From Octopus vulgaris (Eukaryota): a DNA stretch of 64,000 nt. The stretch spans positions 21,948,001 through 22,012,000 of the forward strand of contig OX597829.1 of the NCBI GenBank assembly GCA_951406725.2, given 5' to 3'. The first letter of the stretch is position 1. Every line of letters begins with the position of its first letter. A program made the translations under genes and the position numbers. Below are positions 18,770 to 59,180 of this stretch, piece after piece. The notes beneath the pieces were generated by a model. It worked only from the letters and a program-made list of their open reading frames with translations, was not told where the DNA came from and did no database searches.

Positions 18770-20166
18770 GTGTCATTGTCGTCATCGTCGTTTAACGTCC
18801 ACTTTCCATGTTGGCATGGGTTGGACAGATTAACCAAGGACTGGCAACCCAGAAAGCTGCAATCTGATCTGGCAAGGTTTCTGCAGCTGGATGCTCTTCC
18901 TAATGCCAACCACTCCAAGAGTGTAGTGGGTGCTTTTTACATGCCACTGGCACAATGGCCAGGCAGGCAGCACTAGCAACAACCACACTCAAATGGTGCT
19001 TTTTACGTGCTTCTAGCATAAGGGCCAGTCAGGCAGCACTGGCAACAACCATGCTCAAATGGTGCTTTTTACGTGCTTCCAGCATAGGGGCCAGTCAGGC
19101 AGCACTGGCAACAACCACGCTCAGATGGTGCTTTTTACGTGCTTCCAGCATAGGGGCCAGTCAGGCAGCACTGGCAACAACCACACTCAAATGGTGCTTT
19201 TTACGTGCTTCCAGCATAGGGGCCAGTCAGGCAGCACTGGCAACAACCACGCTCAGATGGTGCTTTTTACGTGCTTCCAGCATAGGGGCCAGTCAGGCAG
19301 CACTGGCAACAACCACGCTCAAATGGTGCTTTTTACGTGCTTCCAGCATAGGGGCCAGTCAGGCAGCACTGGCAACAACCACGCTCAGATGGTGCTTTTT
19401 ACGTGCTTCCAGCATAGGGGCCAGTCAGGCAGCACTGGCAACAACCACACTCAAATGGTGCTTTTTACGTGCTTCCAGCATAGGGGCCAGTCAGGCAGCA
19501 CTGGCAACAACCACGCTCAGATGGTGCTTTTTACGTGCCTCCAGCATAGGGGCCAGTCAGGCAGCACTGGCAACAACCACGCTCAAATGGTGCTTTTTAC
19601 GTGCCTCCAGCATAGGGGCCAGTCAGGCAGCACTGGCAACAACCACGCTCAAATGGTGCTTTTTACGTGCCTCCAGCACAGGAGTCAGTCAGGCAGCACT
19701 GGCAACAACCATGCTCAAATGGTGCTTTTTACGTGCTTCCAGCATAGGGGCCAGTCAGGCAGCACTGGCAACAACCATGCTCAAATGGTGCTTTTTACGT
19801 GCTTCCAGCATAGGGGCCAGTCAGGCAGCACTGGCAACAACCATGCTCAAATGGTGCTTTTTACGTGCCTCCAGCACAGGAGTCAGTCAGGCAGCACTGG
19901 CAACAACCATGCTCAAATGGTGCTTTTTACGTGCCTCCAGCATAGGGGCCAGTCAGGCAGCACTGGCAACAACCACGCTCAAATGGTGCTTTTTACGTGC
20001 CTCCAGCATAGGGGCCAGTCAGGCAGCACTGGCAACAACCATGCTCAAATGGTGCTTTTTACGTGCCTCCAGCACAGGAGTCAGTCAGGCAGCACTGGCA
20101 ACAACCATGCTCAAATGGTGCTTTTTACGTGCTTCCAGCATGGGAGCCAGACAGGCAGCACTGGCA
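18770..20166 (-). mobile_element. RTE 3' UTR containing a 57-bp minisatellite expanded to about 21 copies
   Basis: RTE terminus at 18770-18950, then the unit gccagtcaggcagcactggcaacaaccacgctcaaatggtgctttttacgtgcttccagcataggg from 18955 to 20166. Confidence 0.85.
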
Positions 20167-21714
20167 ATTTTGTGGGGAGGGGATCAACTCAATTACATTG
20201 ACCTCTAGTACTTGAAAGGTACTTTATTTTCTTGAGCCCAAAAGGACGGAAGGCAAAGTTAACTTCAGTAGAATTTGAACTCAGGACATAGAATGCTGGA
20301 AGAAATTCCACAAAGCATTTTGTCTGGCAAAGTAAACAATTATGCCCTCTCGCCACCTTGCACAAGTTTAATAATGAAAATGTTAGTTATTACACTAAAT
20401 CCATTGAAATTATTAATTACACTGGGTAACATGATTTTTGTCCTTGTGTAGCAACTGTTCTTTCCTATTTGCTTATCCCTAGAAAGTATGAAAAATGGTT
20501 AACATTTCCTTCAAACTTTGCTTTTGTTACATTTATTCAAACCTAAAGAATCCTTCTCAACACGTGGCAATGATGCTCCCCAACTCCTCCTGCTGATGAT
20601 CAGATGCACATATTATCAGCCATTGAGGGATATGCTCAAGTGGTTACGGTCAAGCAACTGACAAGTAAATCAGTGGTACTGAGCAGAATATTTTGCAATA
20701 ACAATATTTCTGCTTCAGCAATTCAGTGCTGAATCTGTCTGAAATGTAATGGATTATAGATCAGTTTCAAAACAGTGATGCTCAGATATTTCATAAACAA
20801 AATATGTGTTTGTTTATGAAATATCACAGCTTGCAGTACTGGCTCTGTATTCTGTAGAAAAACTGAGAACATGACACTGCTAACACTTGGTGAGACACGG
20901 TATTGACTTGTAAATTTGTAATATACTTGGCAGTATATCATGGTTGCAAAACAAAATATTGTACAGTTGCCAACAATTAGTAGCTGTAATTTAGAGGATT
21001 GGTTTTAATTCACTGATCCTGCCTGAGAATTACATTAAATAAACAAGTGCCTTTGGAATACTCAGCCAGTCACATCAATGGGTAGAATTTTCTCTCAAGT
21101 GAACATCTGCTACTTTCATTTTCTATATTGATTCAGGATCTACTATGCATGTATGTATATCTGTGTTTGTGTGTTTATGTTCATGTGAGCATCTGTTGTT
21201 TGTGAATTTATGTAGTGACTCTTAATCTCTAGAGAAAAATAAGTAATGGGTATATATACATATTTATATAATGCATATCATGGGTGTAGAGAAAAATTTT
21301 CTATAACCTTTGAAATGTGCATATACACTCGTTACCTACTACTGTCTTTTTAGCAGATCCAGTGACCTTTTAATATCCACCTTTTTAATATCAACCATTT
21401 TAATATCCATGCCATATCCCAAACCTGGATTTTCGTTTTTTAGTGGGTGGCACCAAAAAAAGTAAAACACATGTTAATTGAAGAAAAATTTATCATATTT
21501 ATAAAGGAAAGACAATTGGGAGTGGGGGCCACTGGAAGGAAGTTTGAGGGTCTCGTGCAGCCCTGAGAACCACAGTTGAGAAATGCTGATGAAGAGTATT
21601 CCTTGGTGACATTTTAATATTTTATTGTTGAAACTAAATCAGAAGCTTGATTCTATTTATTTTGTTTCCATGTATTTCTGTAAGAATTTACCTTAAAAAC
21701 TTTTCCAATTTTAA

Positions 21715-32700: not shown

Positions 32701-34066
32701 GTTGCAGTGGAAGGGGCTGAAACACCTACAGAGCTGTTTCATCACCTGATGAAATATCAACTCGTGCATTCAGAGATGGAACACAGCAGCAACTTCAACA
32801 AATAAATGTTTATTTTAAAATGTTAATTAAATATCAACACTTGATGTACAATTTGCTAAATTTCTTTAAGCCATCTGTGATATCAACTAAACCTCTCTCT
32901 CCTTAAAATCATTGTTCTTGTGCTTAGATTAGAAACTTTTAAAATTATACAAACAAAGGAGAACCTATTGTGCCATTATTTTTTTCTTTTTTCTCATTCA
33001 GTAAAAGTGTCCAAGTACCACCATTGCCTGAAGACTCAGCCAATGTACCAGGAAGTATTGACCAGAATCAGTTCGAGTAAGAAAAAGAAAACTGTTCAGT
33101 AAATTTAACATAATTGTTTAATGTTCATCAATTATTCGAAAAAAAATTTTTTTTTTACATATATATATATATATAAAATTAGTCAATGGATAAAGGCAAT
33201 GTCTGTGAATTGTGGAAGTTTTATTCTGAAGCCACTGAGATATTTTCAATTGCTCTGCTGGGTTGGAACAGTAAGAAGCTACATTACATTTAGTTAGTTA
33301 GTTAGTTAATTTTTGGGCTCAAAAAGTAAAAAGCAAGGCCATGTAGGGGGACATGGAGTTATGTATAGGGTGGTGTTCATGTAAAGAGTTCAGGATGTAA
33401 ATGATGGTGAGAGTGGATAGACATGAAATAGAAAACTTGAGATGAGGTTTGTTGAGTGCATACAATCTAAAGTTGGAAATGAGGTACGCAAAAAACATAA
33501 TAACATTTCTTCTAGTGGGAGTCTTGCTTAGAGAGTCACCTAGGCTGAGGTATTGAGGACAGGAGAACTCTCCAATTTGGGAAGCAGGGAACCTTGCATC
33601 CTATGCAATGCACAGAGGCAGTAGTCTTGCAGATGTTGCAGTGGTGAATAACTTTTTCCCTATGTATTATGGGAAGTGATGCTATGCTGCCTGCACAGCT
33701 CTGGATAAACAACTTGGGGCTTGTGGAATGGGGAGGTTAAATGGCTTCAGATGTGTGATAAATGTGAAGTGAGGTGCCTAGGAGGAGGATATCATTCACA
33801 CACTTGTCTCAGATGAGTCAAAATTGAAACATTTTCTATAATGAATAACCAGCTTTAAGCTTTTTAACTGTTTAGCATTCAGATTATACTGTCAAATGTA
33901 ATGTTTGTTTATTCATATTATTCATATTGCTTTGAATTATCATGCATTATCTCATAGCTTCAAGATTTCAATGACATGATCGTTTAGTTTTAAAATGACA
34001 TTATAGGGTTAAGGCGAGAGGCCAGATCTGGCCTATTTCAGCATAAAACATGCTAAATATCCTGTT

Positions 34067-34331
34067 GTGTCTGGGGAGAGTCATTTTCTTTTTGTGCCTT
34101 ATTATATAACACACTCACCGGTAAAATTTCCACTTTTTTCTTATTTTTATTTTCCTAAAATTTTCGTTGCGTCTCGCAACCTTTTCAAGAGTCAAGACTA
34201 TTGAAAGGGTTGCAAGACGCAACAAAAACTTTAAGAAAATAAAAATAAGATATAAGTGGAAATTTTACCGGTGAGTGTGTTATATAATAAGGCACAAAAA
34301 GAAAATGACTCTCCCCAGACACAACAGGATA
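34067..34331. mobile_element. About 125-bp perfect-style hairpin (inverted duplication) carrying a U3-A8 hammerhead variant in each arm
   Basis: atatcctgttgtgtctgggg...ccccagacacaacaggatat. The left arm on minus reads UUGAAAA-GGUUGC(GAGAC)GCAAC-GAAA-AU-UU-UAG. Inserted in a piggyBac-like MITE. Confidence 0.65.
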
Positions 34332-34807
34332 TGCTTCAACACACAAACTCATATAAAGAATCTTGCAAACCAAATCCAAAAATCCAAAAACGAAACATGC
34401 TAAATAGTTTGGCCAGATGTGGTTGGTTTGGATGCAAAAGGGTTAAACAAGTTATATCCAGCAGAAATATTCTACCTGTTTTATACTGAAATCAACCAGA
34501 CCCAGATTCTCACAGCTACCTTGCAATGTCATCTTAAAAATAAACAGTTACATCATCAAAATCTCAAAGCTACGAAATAATGCATGAATTGTTCAAAACA
34601 AATTGAATATATGAGCATTACACATGACAGAGTAATCTGAATGTAAAAGGTTTAAACAGGATGACAGTTAACTGACTTCAAAATTAGAGTCCTGAGGTGA
34701 GTCATATGATAGGAAGATGTGAGGTGGCTCTTTATCACTTTTTTTTTTACAAATCTCAATCATTCCATTTTGATCATGACTGTGATCACTTGGTTAATTT
34801 AATGCCT

Positions 34808-35830: not shown

Positions 35831-36949
35831 TTTTAAAAAAGGAAACCTTTGTATCTGGGTGACAGAACAATTCTCCTGAATAAGATTATAATTGTTTTGT
35901 GTGTCTACTTCTAGTTTCTGAAATTCATATATCTATTGCTTCAACTGGTCATTCTTCAGATGTTTTAGTTCAGTAGTAATAAGACACCTATTGACAATAG
36001 TTCAAACCAATCCTTGGTTAGTCATCTGAATTGCATTAACAAAATCTAAACCTAGACATTTTAGACATTTAATTCTCCCATGCTTAACAAAAATGCTGGT
36101 ATAAGAGCATTTGATGTTTAAATGATAAATTGCTAGGATCAAATTTCCCTATTTCTCCTGCAACAACAGTATTATTAACTGCAAGCGTTAGCAGTCTTTT
36201 TCTAAGTAAACCCTTGCTTTAGTGATTTTATAACACACAAAATAAACTTTTAGAATTCACTTTAATTCAGTTCATGAAGTGTCAAATTTTTCATCCACTT
36301 TAACCTGAGCACAGCGGAAATGTGTCAGTGACCAAGTCATGGTTGAGCAATGGAAATAGGAAAAATTTTGATTCTTCATGAAATAATAATTTAGCAATCT
36401 GTATATCTTACTTAACATGGCTATTCTTTAAGAATGCCAAAATACCACAGTGTTCTAGCACAGTGTTAAAAAGCAAAGAAATATATCAAAATGAGATGCT
36501 TTCTCAAGACGAATACTGCAGTATCATGGTGTTCTTACAGTACATCCACATCAAATAAGTAGGATATAGAGATTACTATTTGGTACTAACACTGCTTTGT
36601 TGCTAATAACTGAATGTTAGTTTCATTAAACATTTTTGTGTGCTATCAAATGGGTAGAATGGCCGTACTTCTATCATATAATTGCTATAACGATCTAGAT
36701 CAGTGGTTCTCAACTGGGGTCCATATAAAATTTTTGTGTTTGGTGGATGGGAGTGGGGGCATACCAGTAAAATAATAAACTGGGGATCCACATTAGTATT
36801 CTATTGGTCCATTAAAAAAACTTGCTTTAGATGTATTTAATGTAAGAAACAGCAAAGTTTCTTTCTCTGATGTTTTACATAGCTAAACCTACACATGTGA
36901 ACATGTGTAAAACAAAATAGGAATTTTGAAAGAAATATTTATAAAACTA

Positions 36950-37153
36950 CGGAGATGTACTTGCATAGCAAGTGATTTGATCTGAGATCATGTGCTGAAA
37001 CAAAAACAATTGCAGCATGGCAGGTGTTTGTAAGCCATTTAAGAAACACACAAAAGCCGTTTGATTCACTTCAACATTTAAGTTTAATTTGTCAAAATAT
37101 TTTCATCGCTTTAAGACCGCGACCTGTTCACTGACAAAAATCCATGCTGCATC
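36950..37153 (-). mobile_element. 204-bp hammerhead-containing retro-insertion
   Basis: 11-bp TSD ttataaaacta at 36939-36949 and 37154-37164, inside the hAT MITE. Confidence 0.75.
37088..37138 (-). ncRNA. Minimal hammerhead ribozyme, G3-C8 variant
   Basis: UUUGUCA-GUGAACA-GGUCGC(GGUCUUAAA)GCGAU-GAAA-AUAU-UU-UGACAAA. Stem I is 7 bp, stem II is 5 bp and stem III is the palindrome AAUAUU. Confidence 0.75.
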
Positions 37154-37769
37154 TTATAAAACTAGTTTTTAAACATCGAATGACTATGGGTCCACTAGAA
37201 TAAAATAGTAATCAAGGGGGTCCATAGATTAAAAAAAATGGTTGAGAACCTCTGCTTTAGATGTATGTATTGGTATGTATTGCAAGAAACAAGTAGGTTT
37301 CTTTCCCTGATATTTTACATGATTCAACCAACACAAGTAAAATAGGAATCTTGAAAGAAGCTTCCATAAAACTAGTTTTTAAAACATTGAATGGTTATGA
37401 GGGTCCACCAGAATAAAATAATCAAAGGGGTCCATAGGTGAAAAAATGGCTGGGAACCACTGATCTAGATTAATTACAATAAAGATTTTTTTTTTTAAAA
37501 AAAGAAGGAAAAGTGAGTAAGAACTAATAAAAAGCTGTTCAATTTACAGCTTTCCTTTGGTAATGTGTTAGTCTGTCTTTGCCATAGGATTTGGAAGCTC
37601 AGTCAAGGAGGATTCACTGAGAGTAAGACTATAAACAATTTGCAGTTAATATTTTCTTTTGCTGCATGTAGAATTAGAGATATTTGATCCAAGGATTTTA
37701 TTTCTCGAGATATTCAATATTCTTACGCAAGTACAACTCTGAAATAGATCTTTGTGGTTGGCCAACATG

Positions 37770-42132: not shown

Positions 42133-43841
42133 TCATCATCATTTAGCGTCTGCTTTCCATGCTGGCATGGGTTGGATGGTTCAACTGGGGTCTGTGAAGC
42201 CAGAAGGCTGCATCAGGCCCAGTCTGATCTGGCAGTGTTTCTACAGCTGGACGCCCTTCCTAACGCCAACCACTTCGTGAGAATAGTGGGTGCTTTTTAC
42301 GTGCCACCCGCACAGGTGCCAGACGGAGCTGGCAAACGGCCACGATCGGATGGTGCATTTTACGTGCCACCCGCACAGGTGCCAGACGGAGCTGGCAACG
42401 TCCACGAACGAATGGTGCTTTTTACGTGTCACCGGCACGGAGGCCAGTGGGGGCGGCGCTGCCAACGGCCACGATCGGATGGTTCGCTTACTTGTCACCG
42501 GCACTGGTATCATAGCTGCAATTTCCATTGATGTTGATCGACTTCGATTTTGGTTCTGCTTTCTGATATCTGATTTGATTTGGTTTGATTTGATTTTCAC
42601 TTGCCTCAACGGGTCTTCACAAGTGGTGTTTTGTGTCCCAAGAAGGAAAGGTATGTATAAGTCGACTGGCTACATACCAGGTAGAGGCCACGGGTTATGG
42701 TCTCATTAGTTTTGCCGGGTCATCTCACGCACAGAATACTTCCATAGGTCTCAGTCTCTAGTCATTTCCTTGGTGAGACCTAAAGTACGGAGGTCGTGCT
42801 TCACCACCTCGTCCCAGGTTTTCCTGGGTCTACCTCTTCCATGGGTTCCCTCAACTGCTAGGGTGTGGCACTTTTGCACACAACTATCTTCAGCCATTCT
42901 CGTCACATGACCATACCAGCGCAAACGTCTCTCTTGCACACCACAACTGATGCTAGGTCCAACTTTTCTCTCAAGGTACTTACACTCTGTCGATTATGAA
43001 CACTGACATTACACATCCATCGGAGCATACTGGCTTAATTTCTTGCGAGCTTACGCATATCCTCAGCAGTCACAGCCCATGTTTCACTACCATGGCTGTA
43101 CGTACACATGCATCATACTGTCTGCCTTTTACTCTGAGCGAGAGGCCTTTTGTCACCAGCAGGGGTAAGGGCTCTCTAAACTTTGCCCAGGCTATTCTTA
43201 CTCTAGCAGTTACACTTTCAGCACACCCACCCCCGCTACTGACTTGGTCACCTAGGTAGCGGAAGCTATCAACTACTTCTAGTTTTTCTCCCTGGAACGT
43301 GGTATAAGTTGGTCTCTGCACATTTTCAGTGTTTATTGCTCCTGAGCATCTGCCACAGACAAAAACTATTTTCCTAGTTAGCCTTCCTTTGACATTGCTG
43401 CACCTCTTATGTATCCATAGCTTACACTTGGTGCACTTTATAGAGTTTCTACCTACACCTTTTTTACAGATCGAGCAGGGCCATCTACCTGAAGGCGTTT
43501 GTGATTGGTCTACCTTCCTACTTATTAGGACTTTGGTTTTGGCTAGGTTGATTCTAAGGCCCTTCGATTCTAAACCTTGCTTCCACACCTGAAACTTCTC
43601 CTCCAGTTCTGATAGTTACTCAGCAATTAGAGCAAGGTCATCAGCATAGAGGAGCTATGTCTTGAATTCCTCTGTTATTGCCTGGGGGACTATGATAAAT
43701 AGGAGAGGACTGAGGACTGAACCTTGGTGGACCCCAACCTCTACTTGGAATTCTTCATTGTACTCGTTGCTAACCCTCACCTTACTAGCAGCGTCTCTGT
43801 ACATGGCTTGCACAGCTCTCACTAACCATTCATCTATCCCT
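42131..43841 (-). mobile_element. RTE-clade LINE, 5'-truncated pseudogene
   Basis: GVHQGSVLSPLLF, LYADDL, FRYLG, RRLRWYGHVTRM and GRGRPRKTW motifs, plus a 3' UTR and (GAT)n tail. Confidence 0.92.
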
Positions 43842-43890
43842 AGTATATATATACATACATATATACAGGTATATATATACATACATACAC

Positions 43891-43921
<31 letters not shown>

Positions 43922-43950
43922 CATATATACACACACATACACGTATATAT

Positions 43951-44437
43951 AGGTAACGGAACCTATCAACTACTTCTAGTTTTTCTCCCTGGAATGTGGT
44001 GGAAGTTGTTCTCTGCACAGTGTCAGTGTCTATTGCTCCAGAGCATCTGCCACATACAAAAACTATCTTCCCAGTTAGCATTCTTCCTTTGATATTGCTG
44101 CACCTCTTATGTGTCCATTGCTTACACTGGGTATATCTTATGGAGTTTCTACCTACGCCTTTTCTACAGATCGAGCAGGGCCATCTACCTGAAGGTATTT
44201 GTGGTTTGTCTGCCTTCCTACTTATTAAGACTTTGGTTTTAGCTAGGTTGACTCTAAGGCCCTTCAATTCTAATCCTTGCTTCCACACCTGAAACTTCTC
44301 TAGTTCTGATAGTGACTCAGCAATTAGAGCAAGGTCATCAGCATAGAGGAGCATCCTATCTTGAATTCCTCTGTTATTGCCTGGAGGACTATGATGAACA
44401 AGAGGGGGCTGAGGACTAATCCTTGGTGGACCCCTAC
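43951..44437 (-). mobile_element. Second RTE RT fragment, paralogous to about 43250-43740
   Basis: LLYADDLALIAESLSEL...WPCSICRKGVG...EVVDRFRYL. Confidence 0.88.
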
Positions 44438-44489
44438 CACACATACACACACACACACATATATATACACACATACATACATACACATA

Positions 44490-44967
44490 TAGAGATGATA
44501 AGAAATGGAACAATAATTAACAATGAGGAGTGAATCATTAGTGTTTTAAAGTCATTATTTAATTGATTAGAAGTATGTTTACACCTGTTTCTATTTATCA
44601 AAATTTGCAGTTACCTCATCACAATTGATAAACACCATCAGAAAGATTATATGGCAAAAATAAAATAGAAAGAAAGAAAAAAAAATGTTAATCCAATAGT
44701 CTTCCATTTTAGTAACTTACATAGTTCCATGTATCGATGTATTACCTCAGTATGTATGGTCCTTGTTATAAGGTATACAGTAGTAGGTAATTTAAAAGTA
44801 AAACCATGGTTGAGTGGGTGTGGTAAGTAGCTTGTTTACCAACCACATGGTTCCGGGTTCAGTCCCACTGCGTGGCACCTTGGGCAAGTGTCTTCTACTA
44901 TAGCCTCAGGCCAACCAAAGCCTTGTGAGTGGATTTGGTAGACGGAAACTGAAAGAAGCCCGTTGTA

Positions 44968-52568: not shown

Positions 52569-52749
52569 TCCATGCATATATGGGTACAGGACATCACCAA
52601 TGGTGCAAATAACATGAAGTACATAAACAAATGAGTGAAATATATAAACAATGAGAAAAAATGGAAAACAGGACAAATAAACACAGAGAAAGACCCTTCC
52701 TCAGTTGTTGGCTGTCTATCTATGATTTTATATATAAATATATATATAT

Positions 52750-53637
52750 GGGTCAGGCTACATCGGACATCCCAAACATACATATTGGAGGCCACAGATT
52801 ACAAGAGGTGGAGAAGTTTACCTATCTTGGCTCTACCGTCACCTACAACCTATCCCTTGATGCTGAGCTCAATATACGCATTGGCAAGGCAGCTGCTGCG
52901 ATGGCCCAACTCTCCAAACGGGCGTGGGACAATAAGCTCACCAAGACCACGAAAATGAAGATCTACCAGGCATATGTACTTAGCTCTCTACTGTATGGAA
53001 GTGAGACTTGGACGCTATACACACGCCAAGAGCGTCGCCTAAACATCTTTCACCTGCGCTGCCTCCGGAAAATCCTCCGCATGAAATGGCAGAATCATAT
53101 CCCCAATAAAGATGTCCTCAAGCAAGCAGGAATACCAAGCATGTTTGCACTCCTCACACAAAGACATATGAGATGGCTTGGACATGTTAGCCGTATGAAA
53201 GATGGCAGAATCCCCAAGGACATACTCTACGGAGAGCTTGCTAGGGGTACTAGGTCTGTGGGTAGACCGTTCTTACATTACAAGGATGTTTGCAAAAGGG
53301 ACATGTAGGCCTGCAACATCAATATTAGCGGTTGGGAGGCAGTTGCCAGCAACCGTGGAGATTGGCGACGTACCGTAAAAGAGGGAATACAAAGGCGTGA
53401 CAGAGAGAGAGAGAGGAGAAATGGAAAGACAAGAAAAGATGTCAACAAGAAACTATAGCATTACAACCAGCCAGGAACAGTCTTCGCTACATTTGCAGTA
53501 CCTGCCAGAGGGAGTGTTTGTCCAGGATAGGACTACACAGCCACAGCAGGAAATGTATCAGGACATGAAATGTAAAAGTCGGACTAGACTATTTTATGCG
53601 CAACTCCATTGTATCCCGAGACAAAAAGGATGCCAAA
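52750..53637 (+). mobile_element. BovB-like RTE LINE 3' fragment
   Basis: LQEVEKFTYLGSTV...LLYGSETW...MRWLGHVSRMKDGRIPKDILYGEL, a C-terminal CSTCQRECLSRIGLHSH zinc finger and a short UTR. Inserted in (TA)n. Confidence 0.9.
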
Positions 53638-54497: not shown

Positions 54498-54521
<24 letters not shown>

Positions 54522-54526
<5 letters not shown>

Positions 54527-55120
54527 CATAAATGAGGGCAAGGGAAAAAAATTTCTAATGCCAAATTTGCCGAAAAATTGGACATATTGTCCATTAACCA
54601 TATAATTTTTTCACAATACACACGCTACTCGAAAAAAGGTCGACAGAAATTTCTAAAAAGTTCCATTATTACCATATCGGACTCATACCCATGGGTATGA
54701 GTAAGTATCTCATTTATTTCTTTTGCCACATGTATCACTGACGAAGAGAGGGCTCTTAGTAGCTAACTCTGAAATCGGTCCGATATGGTAATAATGGAAC
54801 TTTTTAGAAATTTCTGTCGACCTTTTTTCAAGTAGCGTGCGTATTGTGAAAAAATTAATGGTTAATGGACAATATGTCCAATTTTTCGGCATATTTGGCA
54901 TTAGAAATTTTTTCCTTTGCCCTCATTTATGAATTGTTTATAAATTTAACCGTTAAAGGTATTTTTTAATATGCTGGCCATTGATAAGATTTTTTTCGAG
55001 AAAATATTTTTTTTCGAAAAGAATTTTATCCTCACATTTGATATATATATAGTATTTCTAAATTGAATTTTTTCCCTGTAAGTTAGGATTAATATTCCCT
55101 CAAATAATTATTATTATATA

Positions 55121-57082: not shown

Positions 57083-59180
57083 TGCTAAACAATTGAGATA
57101 TTATAGGGAGTAAAGTGTGTGTGGATGGATAATGGTGTGCTTGCACTTAATGATGTGGACAAGAAAGAGGTATAGAAAAGTTACTATGCAAGACTGTTGA
57201 ATGTAGAGAATGAATGGGATAAAGAGAGTCTCCCTCATATGAACCCAACAGAGGGACTAACTATCCTAGTGGACAGCAGTATGGTAGATAAGGCAATTAA
57301 AACCATGAAAATCAGGAAAACCCCTGGTCCATCTGGAATCATGACTGAGATGCTCAAAATATCTGCAAAGGTAATGTATGGGCTAGTCATCTGCATAGTT
57401 AATTAGGTTATTCAGGAAGATGTAATACCCAGTGACTGGTATAGCAGCCTAATTGTTAGCTGCTACAAGGGCAAGGGTGATGCTTTAGATAGAAACAATT
57501 ATAGAGGCATCAAACTCCTGAAGCAGGTGATGAAAATTACAAAGAGAGTTATAGCCCAATTAATTAGGAGCAGGATTAGGCTAGATGAAATGCAGTTTGG
57601 CTTCATCCAGAGAAGAAGCACTACTGATGCTATTTTCATGGTCAGACAACTGCAAGAGAAGTACTTAGCTAAGAATGAGCCAATATACTTGGCATTTGTT
57701 GATCTAGAGAAGACCTTTGATAGAGTGCCCCGCTGTATGATATGGTGGGCACTGAGGAGGTTAGAGATAGAAGAGTGGCTGGCGAAAGCTGTACAGGCCA
57801 TCTACAAAGACACTGTCAGTAAAGTGAGAGTTAACCACGAGTACAGCAAAGAATTTGGTTTACATGTAAGGGTTCATTAAGGCTCAGTCCTTAGTCCCCT
57901 CCCTTTCATCATTGTCCTCCAGGCCATAACAGAGGAATTCAAGGCTGGCAGCCCCTGAGAATTACTATATGCTGATGACCTTGCCCTCATAGCAGACTCC
58001 TTATCAGAGCTAGATGAGAAATTCCAGGTGTGGAAGCAAAACCTGGAATATAAAGGCCTTAAAGTTAACTTGGCAAATACTAAGGTCCTAGTAAGCAAGA
58101 AAACTGACAGGACTCTACTTCACTCAAGTAGGTGGCTCTGTTCAGTTTGTAGGAAAAGTATAGACAGAAACTCAATATGGTGTATCCAGTGTAAACTATG
58201 GACACACAAGAGGTGCAGCTGATCATTAGGAAAGTTGTCAAAGAAGATAGTTTTTGTATGTGGAAGATGCACAGGATCTATAAAAACTTTAGAAACTCAG
58301 GAGGTAGTAGATAATTTCTGCTTCCTAGGGGACCAAATTGATGCTGGGGAGGATGTACAGAGTGTGTGTGATAGCTAGAATAAGAATAGGATGGAGAAAA
58401 TTCAGAGAGCTGTTGCCTCTGTTGCCCACAAAAGGCTTCTGTCTCCGAGTGAAAGGAAGATTGTATGATGCATGTATACAGACAGTAATTCTACATGGTA
58501 ATGAGACAAGGGCCTTGAATGCAGAGAATATGCAAAAGTTAGAAAGGAATGAGGATAGTATGCTCAGCTGGATGTGGAATGTAAGTGTACATGTTCAACA
58601 GAGTATTAGTGTTTTGAGAGAGAAGTTAGGCATAAGAGAAATTAGTTGTTGTGGGCAAAAGAGGGGACTGTGTTGGTTTGGTTATGTGATGCGGATGGAC
58701 ATCCACAACTTCATAAAGAAGAGCCAATCTCTCAAAATAGATGGAACATGTGGAAGTGGGAGATCCAGGAAGACATGGGATGAAATGCTGAAGAGTGACC
58801 TAAGGACACTGAACCCTTAAGGTGAGATGACAAAGGACCAAGATGCCTGGCACCTTGCTGTACTCAAGAAGACCTGTATTCTGCAGCAGAAGTGTTAAGA
58901 TTGGTCCCTCTGGTGGTGTAAAGCACTTGTGACAGCACCATATAAAGCACCCATGCAGTGCCACATAAAAGCACCTATGCAGTGTCACATAAAAGTGCCC
59001 ATGAGGTGCCATACAAAAGCATCCAGCACACTCTATGAAGTGGTTGGTGTTAGGAAGAGCATCCAGCTGTAGAAACCATGCCAAGGCAGACTGGAGTCTC
59101 GTGTAGTTTCCCAGCTTGCAAGTTCTGGTCAAACTGTCCAACCCGTGCCAGCATGGACAACAGATATTAAGTGATGATGA
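57080..59180 (+). mobile_element. RTE-clade LINE, decayed
   Basis: KTPGPSGI, NYRGIKLL, QFGF...STTDAIF, AFVDLEKTFDRVP, LYADDL, a PHD-like insert, a 3' UTR and a GAT tail. Several stops. Confidence 0.92.

Follow-up and report, generated by a model that had tools for sequence, protein, structure and literature searches.

On the minus strand, positions 37088–37138 of the window (the whole stretch of 64,000 nucleotides analysed here) parse as a minimal type I hammerhead with the core GUGAACA. The descriptor scan bears out the sequence-only reading, which had named a G3-C8 hammerhead at this place. The letters of a type I core are present (U4, G5, A6, N7, A9, G12, A13, A14, A15.1-U16.1 and H17), while the canonical C3 and G8 are absent and are replaced by G3 and C8. 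Stems I and II both appear in the minimum free energy (MFE) fold of the window motif. The stem III palindrome is unpaired in the monomer MFE and forms no stable intramolecular stem; its duplex is predicted at −4.6 kcal/mol, and in the predicted homodimer MFE it is stems I and II, not stem III, that pair across strands. The window copy also has a decayed G10.1·U11.1 pair, and C11.1 is found in 72 of 83 family copies. The identity of the motif as first described stands. That description overlooked the extra G between A9 and G10.1, the palindromic nature of stem III and the decayed G·U pair, and its statement that all three stems are intact does not hold, with stem III a 6-nt palindrome that is unpaired in the monomer and a G·U at 10.1/11.1.

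A strict descriptor that leaves positions 3 and 8 free matches this motif alone within the 64-kb window, and the same descriptor gives no match in 200 block-wise dinucleotide shuffles of the window. An Rfam scan of the small region (E ≤ 10) returned four unrelated weak matches and none to a hammerhead model, which indicates that standard searches miss the G3-C8 motif, as had been foreseen for searches with a fixed CUGANGA. In an Rfam scan of the window, there is no hammerhead among the best 150 of 156 matches listed.

The motif lies in a leader copy of a Penelope-like element (PLE), which is bounded by an 11-bp target-site duplication and inserted into a MITE that we take to be hAT-like from its terminal inverted repeats and target-site duplication. 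This PLE copy is a dead, decayed insertion with no evident selection on it. Inspection of the window's ORFs by eye revealed no host exon. LINE-like reverse transcriptase (RT) ORF fragments were seen by eye at 43073–44516, 52655–53305 and 57407–58817, and a tandem array of a 66-bp unit (×19) occupies 18929–20167. The coordinates of the features are collected in Table 1.

Table 1. Features of the hammerhead motif, of the insertion that carries it and of the other hammerhead motifs in the window.
Feature	Position	Strand	Basis or remark
Minimal type I hammerhead motif	37088..37138	-	Descriptor scan and fold
Stem I, 7 bp	37138-37132/37094-37088	-	Scan and MFE fold
Core positions 3-9	37131-37125	-	G3 = 37131, C8 = 37126
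Extra G between A9 and G10.1	37124	-	
Stem II, 5 bp	37123-37119/37109-37105	-	Scan and MFE fold
G12-A14 (GAA)	37104-37102	-	
Palindromic stem III segment, A15.1..U16.1, 6 nt	37096..37101	-	Dimer-type
U17	37095	-	Predicted cleavage after U17, between 37095 and 37094
PLE leader copy, 204 bp	36950..37153	-	Putative RNA 5´ end, hammerhead, 5´UTR, first ~30 ORF codons
PLE ORF start	36950..37038	-	ATG 37038-37036; premature stop in the window copy
Target-site duplication, 11 bp, left copy	36939..36949	+	
Target-site duplication, 11 bp, right copy	37154..37164	+	
MITE with terminal inverted repeats	36701..37462		Host of the PLE insertion; 8-bp duplication at 36693-36700 and 37463-37470
Inverted pair of family-1 leader copies (U3-A8 core)	34057..34332		Both arms damaged
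U3 of the family-1 motif	34188	-	
Canonical C3-G8 hammerhead, separate repeat family	54733..54790	+	Motif scan

Two further hammerhead motifs lie in the window. A U3-A8 variant that had been placed at 34155 does exist, with its U3 at 34188, but this copy has lost stem I at the inversion junction and was missed by a relaxed stem-I scan; family 1 as a whole retains stem I. Where several C3-G8 copies had been claimed, one intact motif was found, at 54733–54790. It lies in a young repeat (54500–55050) that forms an inverted pair between TA microsatellites; the best copies of this repeat are 98–99% alike, with 1,924 first-look candidates, and an ORF linked to the family was looked for and not found. 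The co-occurrence of three pairings in the window, which had been offered as evidence of selection, is a weak argument because each motif comes from one of three repeat families, and copies of repeats do not count as independent.

The Penelope-like family and conservation of G3-C8

The motif is part of a dispersed repeat of ~225 nt that often occurs as inverted pairs, and a 16-mer across its core has 7,098 exact matches genome-wide, compared with one for the reversed control (genome-wide counts cover a 2.8-Gb genome). Longer copies extend upstream into a same-strand ORF ~1.0–1.3 kb away with a YVDD motif, a Cys-rich linker and GIY-YIG. A G3-C8 motif that passes the scan lies downstream of 24 of the 34 endonuclease matches of this family (family 0) within the downstream DNA examined, and in two full 5´ copies (L196 and L197) the leader runs on into the RT ORF. 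The RT, marked by YVDD, and the C-terminal GIY-YIG share one open frame, as in an EN+ PLE. The GIY-YIG scores above the Pfam cut-off; Pfam RVT_1 itself gives no match for family 0, and Atlas neighbours of the element carry RVT_1, HTH_animal and GIY-YIG. Other traits of EN+ PLEs are also seen, namely a pseudo-LTR (pLTR), inverted 5´-truncated copies and a tail extension. The motif occupies the pLTR on the sense strand and has the extra nucleotide at 9/10.1 and the palindromic helix III of PLE minimal hammerheads (min-HHRs). It is thus the 5´UTR/pseudo-LTR hammerhead of a high-copy Penelope-like retrotransposon with RT and GIY-YIG. The ORF begins with an ATG 56 nt after the predicted cut and an in-frame stop lies directly before it; the hammerhead is therefore outside the coding sequence, which rules out a codon constraint on G3 or C8.

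The sequence-only reading had pointed to other genomic copies as a check on G3 and C8, and there the pair is kept. Among 6,291 genome-wide exact matches to the 20-mer flank, with positions 3 and 8 free, 5,777 are G3-C8, 339 have G3 with another base at position 8 and 175 lack G3. A set of 83 copies (69 loci), picked by the 5´ part of the pLTR or by the ORF without regard to the hammerhead, contains 74 with G3-C8, nine with a single change and none with a double change. The remaining core letters are near-invariant in this set (G5, A6, A9, G12-A14 and A15.1-U16.1 are kept), and subfamilies that differ in loop II show no change at any other core position. By hand count, 12 of the 100 listed matches without G3 are doubles, five of which are Watson-Crick (~4 expected from the spectra) and none C3-G8. 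The changes within the family are neutral decay, with no compensatory excess. Contigs from four runs of four organisms, one of which may be the source of the window itself, have no alternative letter at ≥5% over 37122–37138 or 37093–37104; CpG and loop positions vary in the same contigs. Such contigs carry no information on RNA ends or strand, and the dataset records consulted for expression listed no RNA sample that contains the motif.

An older loop subfamily has G3-C8 in 72 of 100 listed copies and G8 in 10 (hand count). When G3 copies are changed at position 8 (window-equivalent 37126), the replacement is G in 43, U in 39 and A in 18 of the 100 matches listed (hand count); C-to-G at this position is far commoner than the mirror change at position 3 (9/100 listed), which slippage or a mutational hot spot might explain. 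Copies with G3·G8 are seen in several subfamilies; they are scattered over a poorly resolved tree, which gives no support to a G3·G8 intermediate subfamily. At one locus (L210), about seven family-0 leaders stand in tandem ahead of an ORF start, an arrangement in which dimer cleavage could occur naturally.

Covariation of the 3-8 pair between sister families

With the endonuclease region of a relative as the query, three families were found among 50 of 150 matches listed: family 0 has G3-C8, family 1 has U3-A8, and family 2 has C3-G8 with a C at position 9. The motif at 34188 belongs to family 1 and that at 37131 to family 0, which are sister Penelope-like families. The family 2 copies (L145, L146, L151, L163 and L164) share C3-G8, C9 and an extra G, and L145 has an open frame of 1,151 codons. 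An intact motif just behind the ORF is present in three of 11 metagenome loci, with C-G in L108 and U-A in L104 and L110. The covariation count excludes the other eight, including L105 and L106, whose cores are damaged, L107, which has no motif, and loci that lack 3´ DNA. L106 (1025–1150) retains the first core strand with C3/G8 and a 7-bp stem II and has no GAAA; L105 (1570–1750) retains a partial core with C3/G8 and U4G.

The families branch as (family 0 G-C, (family 2 C-G, family 1 U-A)) with support 92/92, unstarred. The six lineages on the tree are all Watson-Crick at 3-8, with no mismatch, and parsimony over them gives three changes at position 3, three at position 8 and three of the pair. 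When the bases of position 8 are dealt out at random, all six lineages are paired in 1/60 cases. Since the lineages share kinship, the covariation amounts to three events rather than six, and the case, resting on six lineages and three events, is limited. A descriptor free at positions 3, 8 and 9 was applied to 0.97 Mb of genome DNA enriched for family 0; the majority is Watson-Crick in six of six recurring hammerhead families, compared with three of nine singletons. The flanks of L167 and L175 contain two further recurring hammerhead families of the genome; one has U3-A8 and lacks the extra base, and the other has C3-G8 together with an additional A.

From the sequences compared, the real covariation lies between families and not within the family. 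This Watson-Crick covariation among sister families upholds the earlier conclusion of selection, and it supports G3-C8 as a real, natural variant of the minimal hammerhead in a Penelope-like family.

Copy ends, proposed cleavage and its meaning

The 3´ ends of family-0 copies cluster at ~+30–35 and +88–94 of the ORF, which resembles the internal sites at which RT starts in the anole PLE (PMC11167929). The 5´ ends were placed in 238 copies, a sample biased toward those that bear the hammerhead: 70 lie at one site ~58–60 nt before the predicted cut, 72 further upstream, 2 at the cut and 3 beyond it, and 91 between the common site and the cut, a number inflated by trimming. Of the 30 copies whose first base falls precisely on the common site (window 37153–37154), 27 have a G before it; this preceding base is limited to G or A by construction, and a fair background for G is ~0.36. 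The boundary at 37153–37154 is sharp and also resembles a 3´ splice site. The common start with an apparently untemplated G suggests a transcription start with a copied cap, and hence templates that were not cleaved. An intron model gave no match to the guessed exon junction, and its candidate donor is not conserved in 30 copies; the transcription start is preferred because a cap-derived G would fit better. Copies that likely derive from capped, uncleaved RNA would indicate slow or gated cleavage, and this picture would fit slow, dimer- or protein-gated cleavage and a non-catalytic role equally.

Minimal PLE hammerheads, natural U3-A8 and partial rescue by an engineered G3-C8 are already known. 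In the available text of Cervera and De la Peña (2014; PMC4209133), metazoan min-HHRs resemble the octopus motif in their pLTR location, G10.1-C11.1, extra 9/10.1 nucleotide, palindromic helix III, mostly solo or inverted copies and the U17 common in Fig. S3, and U3-A8 covariation is reported in Schistosoma min-HHRs. In contrast, G3 occurs in none of the 56 families of that figure as given in text form, the extra base there is H by consensus with one G example, compared with G here, and stem I is longer here, at 7 bp (PMC4209133). The text of Perreault et al. (2011; PMC3088659) also describes natural 3-8 covariation and gives U3-A8 only; a search of its supplement was uninformative, as a canonical control core matched just a primer table. 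The non-LTR retrozymes, as far as the preprint text covers them, likewise place a type I hammerhead in PLE-derived repeats, but these form head-to-tail tandem arrays, whereas most octopus copies are leaders of an element with an ORF and stand alone or inverted (bioRxiv 10.64898/2026.07.22.740005).

The closest functional comparison is the anole Poseidon element PAc (Frangieh et al., 2024; PMC11167929), which, in the text consulted, shares the hammerhead at the pLTR-ORF junction, AT-rich targets and copy ends inside the ORF start (two sites at +30–35 and +88–94 here, 111–118 in PAc). Unlike in the octopus motif, the ORF overlaps the ribozyme in PAc and is not separate from it. In PAc, C3G and G8C each abolish cleavage and the double mutant partly restores it, so that G3-C8 is an engineered partial-rescue mutant there and natural here, and cleavage needs the PLE protein (PMC11167929). 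The octopus family also differs in its Cys-rich linker, which is of the Neptune/Nematis type according to the text of PMC8557442, the tree for the clade question having been built without named reference PLEs. Natural G3-C8 was not found in the text of the literature searched, which yielded engineered mentions only; a literature search on octopus returned nothing on the hammerhead motif.

On balance, we regard the G3-C8 motif as probably a slow, dimer- or protein-assisted ribozyme that would cut the RNA of the element after U17. Two points favour retained catalysis: pairing of 3 with 8 is a feature of the active fold, and none of the other catalytic letters has been lost. G3-C8 would still make the tertiary pair of this fold, and stem III would form between two motifs through the palindrome in tandem read-through RNA or, alternatively, with help from the element's own protein. 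U17 sites are cut more slowly than C17 sites. With slow cleavage, reverse transcription that starts inside the ORF would usually copy uncut capped RNA; trimming of tandem or read-through transcripts by the ribozyme would belong to some step in the master element's cycle. Several findings count against retained catalysis: just 2 of the 238 copies in the biased sample begin at the predicted cut, family 2 has C at position 9, the family itself shows no compensatory excess, and PLE min-HHRs are weakly active in vitro (PMC4209133). In the PAc text, moreover, ribozyme mutants have no effect on insertion and no RNA-seq reads end at the cut (PMC11167929).

In a possible, though clearly less probable, explanation, the fold and its 3-8 pair persist as a structural signal that serves protein binding, folding of the RT template or control of translation, with negligible cleavage in vivo. 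Copies that seem to derive from uncleaved RNA and the tolerance of A9C in family 2 would fit such a signal, as would several published observations: in the PAc text, ribozyme-dead mutants still insert in vitro (PMC11167929); for PLE min-HHRs, functions other than self-cleavage are allowed for (PMC4209133); and Naiad PLEs are described as proliferating without canonical hammerheads (PMC8557442). However, the 3-8 pair is described as part of the active conformation and as absent from ground-state crystals of minimal ribozymes (PMC3884650), and G5, A6, A9, G12-A14 and A15.1-U16.1 are all kept.

A dead relic whose master element acquired G3 and C8 as separate neutral changes, complementary by chance, is improbable; one family is one event, a chance pair is not rare, variation within the family is neutral and G3·G8 recurs in several subfamilies, but the pair is complementary in all six tree lineages and all six recurring genome families, and no other core position changes across the loop II subfamilies. 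The silence of the Rfam models would agree with a hammerhead look-alike that arose by chance in unrelated repeats, but this is highly improbable given the empty shuffles, the usual PLE hammerhead site and the homologous motifs at the same place in relatives.

Beyond a slow ribozyme as such, we raise tentatively, and consider rather doubtful, that natural G3-C8 is a rate-tuning core and that sister families set the slowness of leader cutting through C-G, U-A and G-C. Capped RNA would then be translated and copied uncut, and would be cut only after dimerisation or RT binding.

The weight of these findings is limited by the prior knowledge of the motif class and of G3-C8 rescue and by the dead state of the window copy. 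PLE hammerheads show little activity in vitro, and in one reconstituted system insertion proceeds without them. A non-coding pair of the active fold that has switched among C-G, U-A and G-C in sister families argues for selection on the active conformation, and the three pairings form a naturally matched series for kinetic comparison. At least 7,098 copies in this genome escape descriptors and Rfam, which leaves the counts of eukaryotic hammerheads incomplete. If the rate-tuning view is true, thousands of ribozymes per genome would be invisible to CUGANGA/UUGANAA searches.
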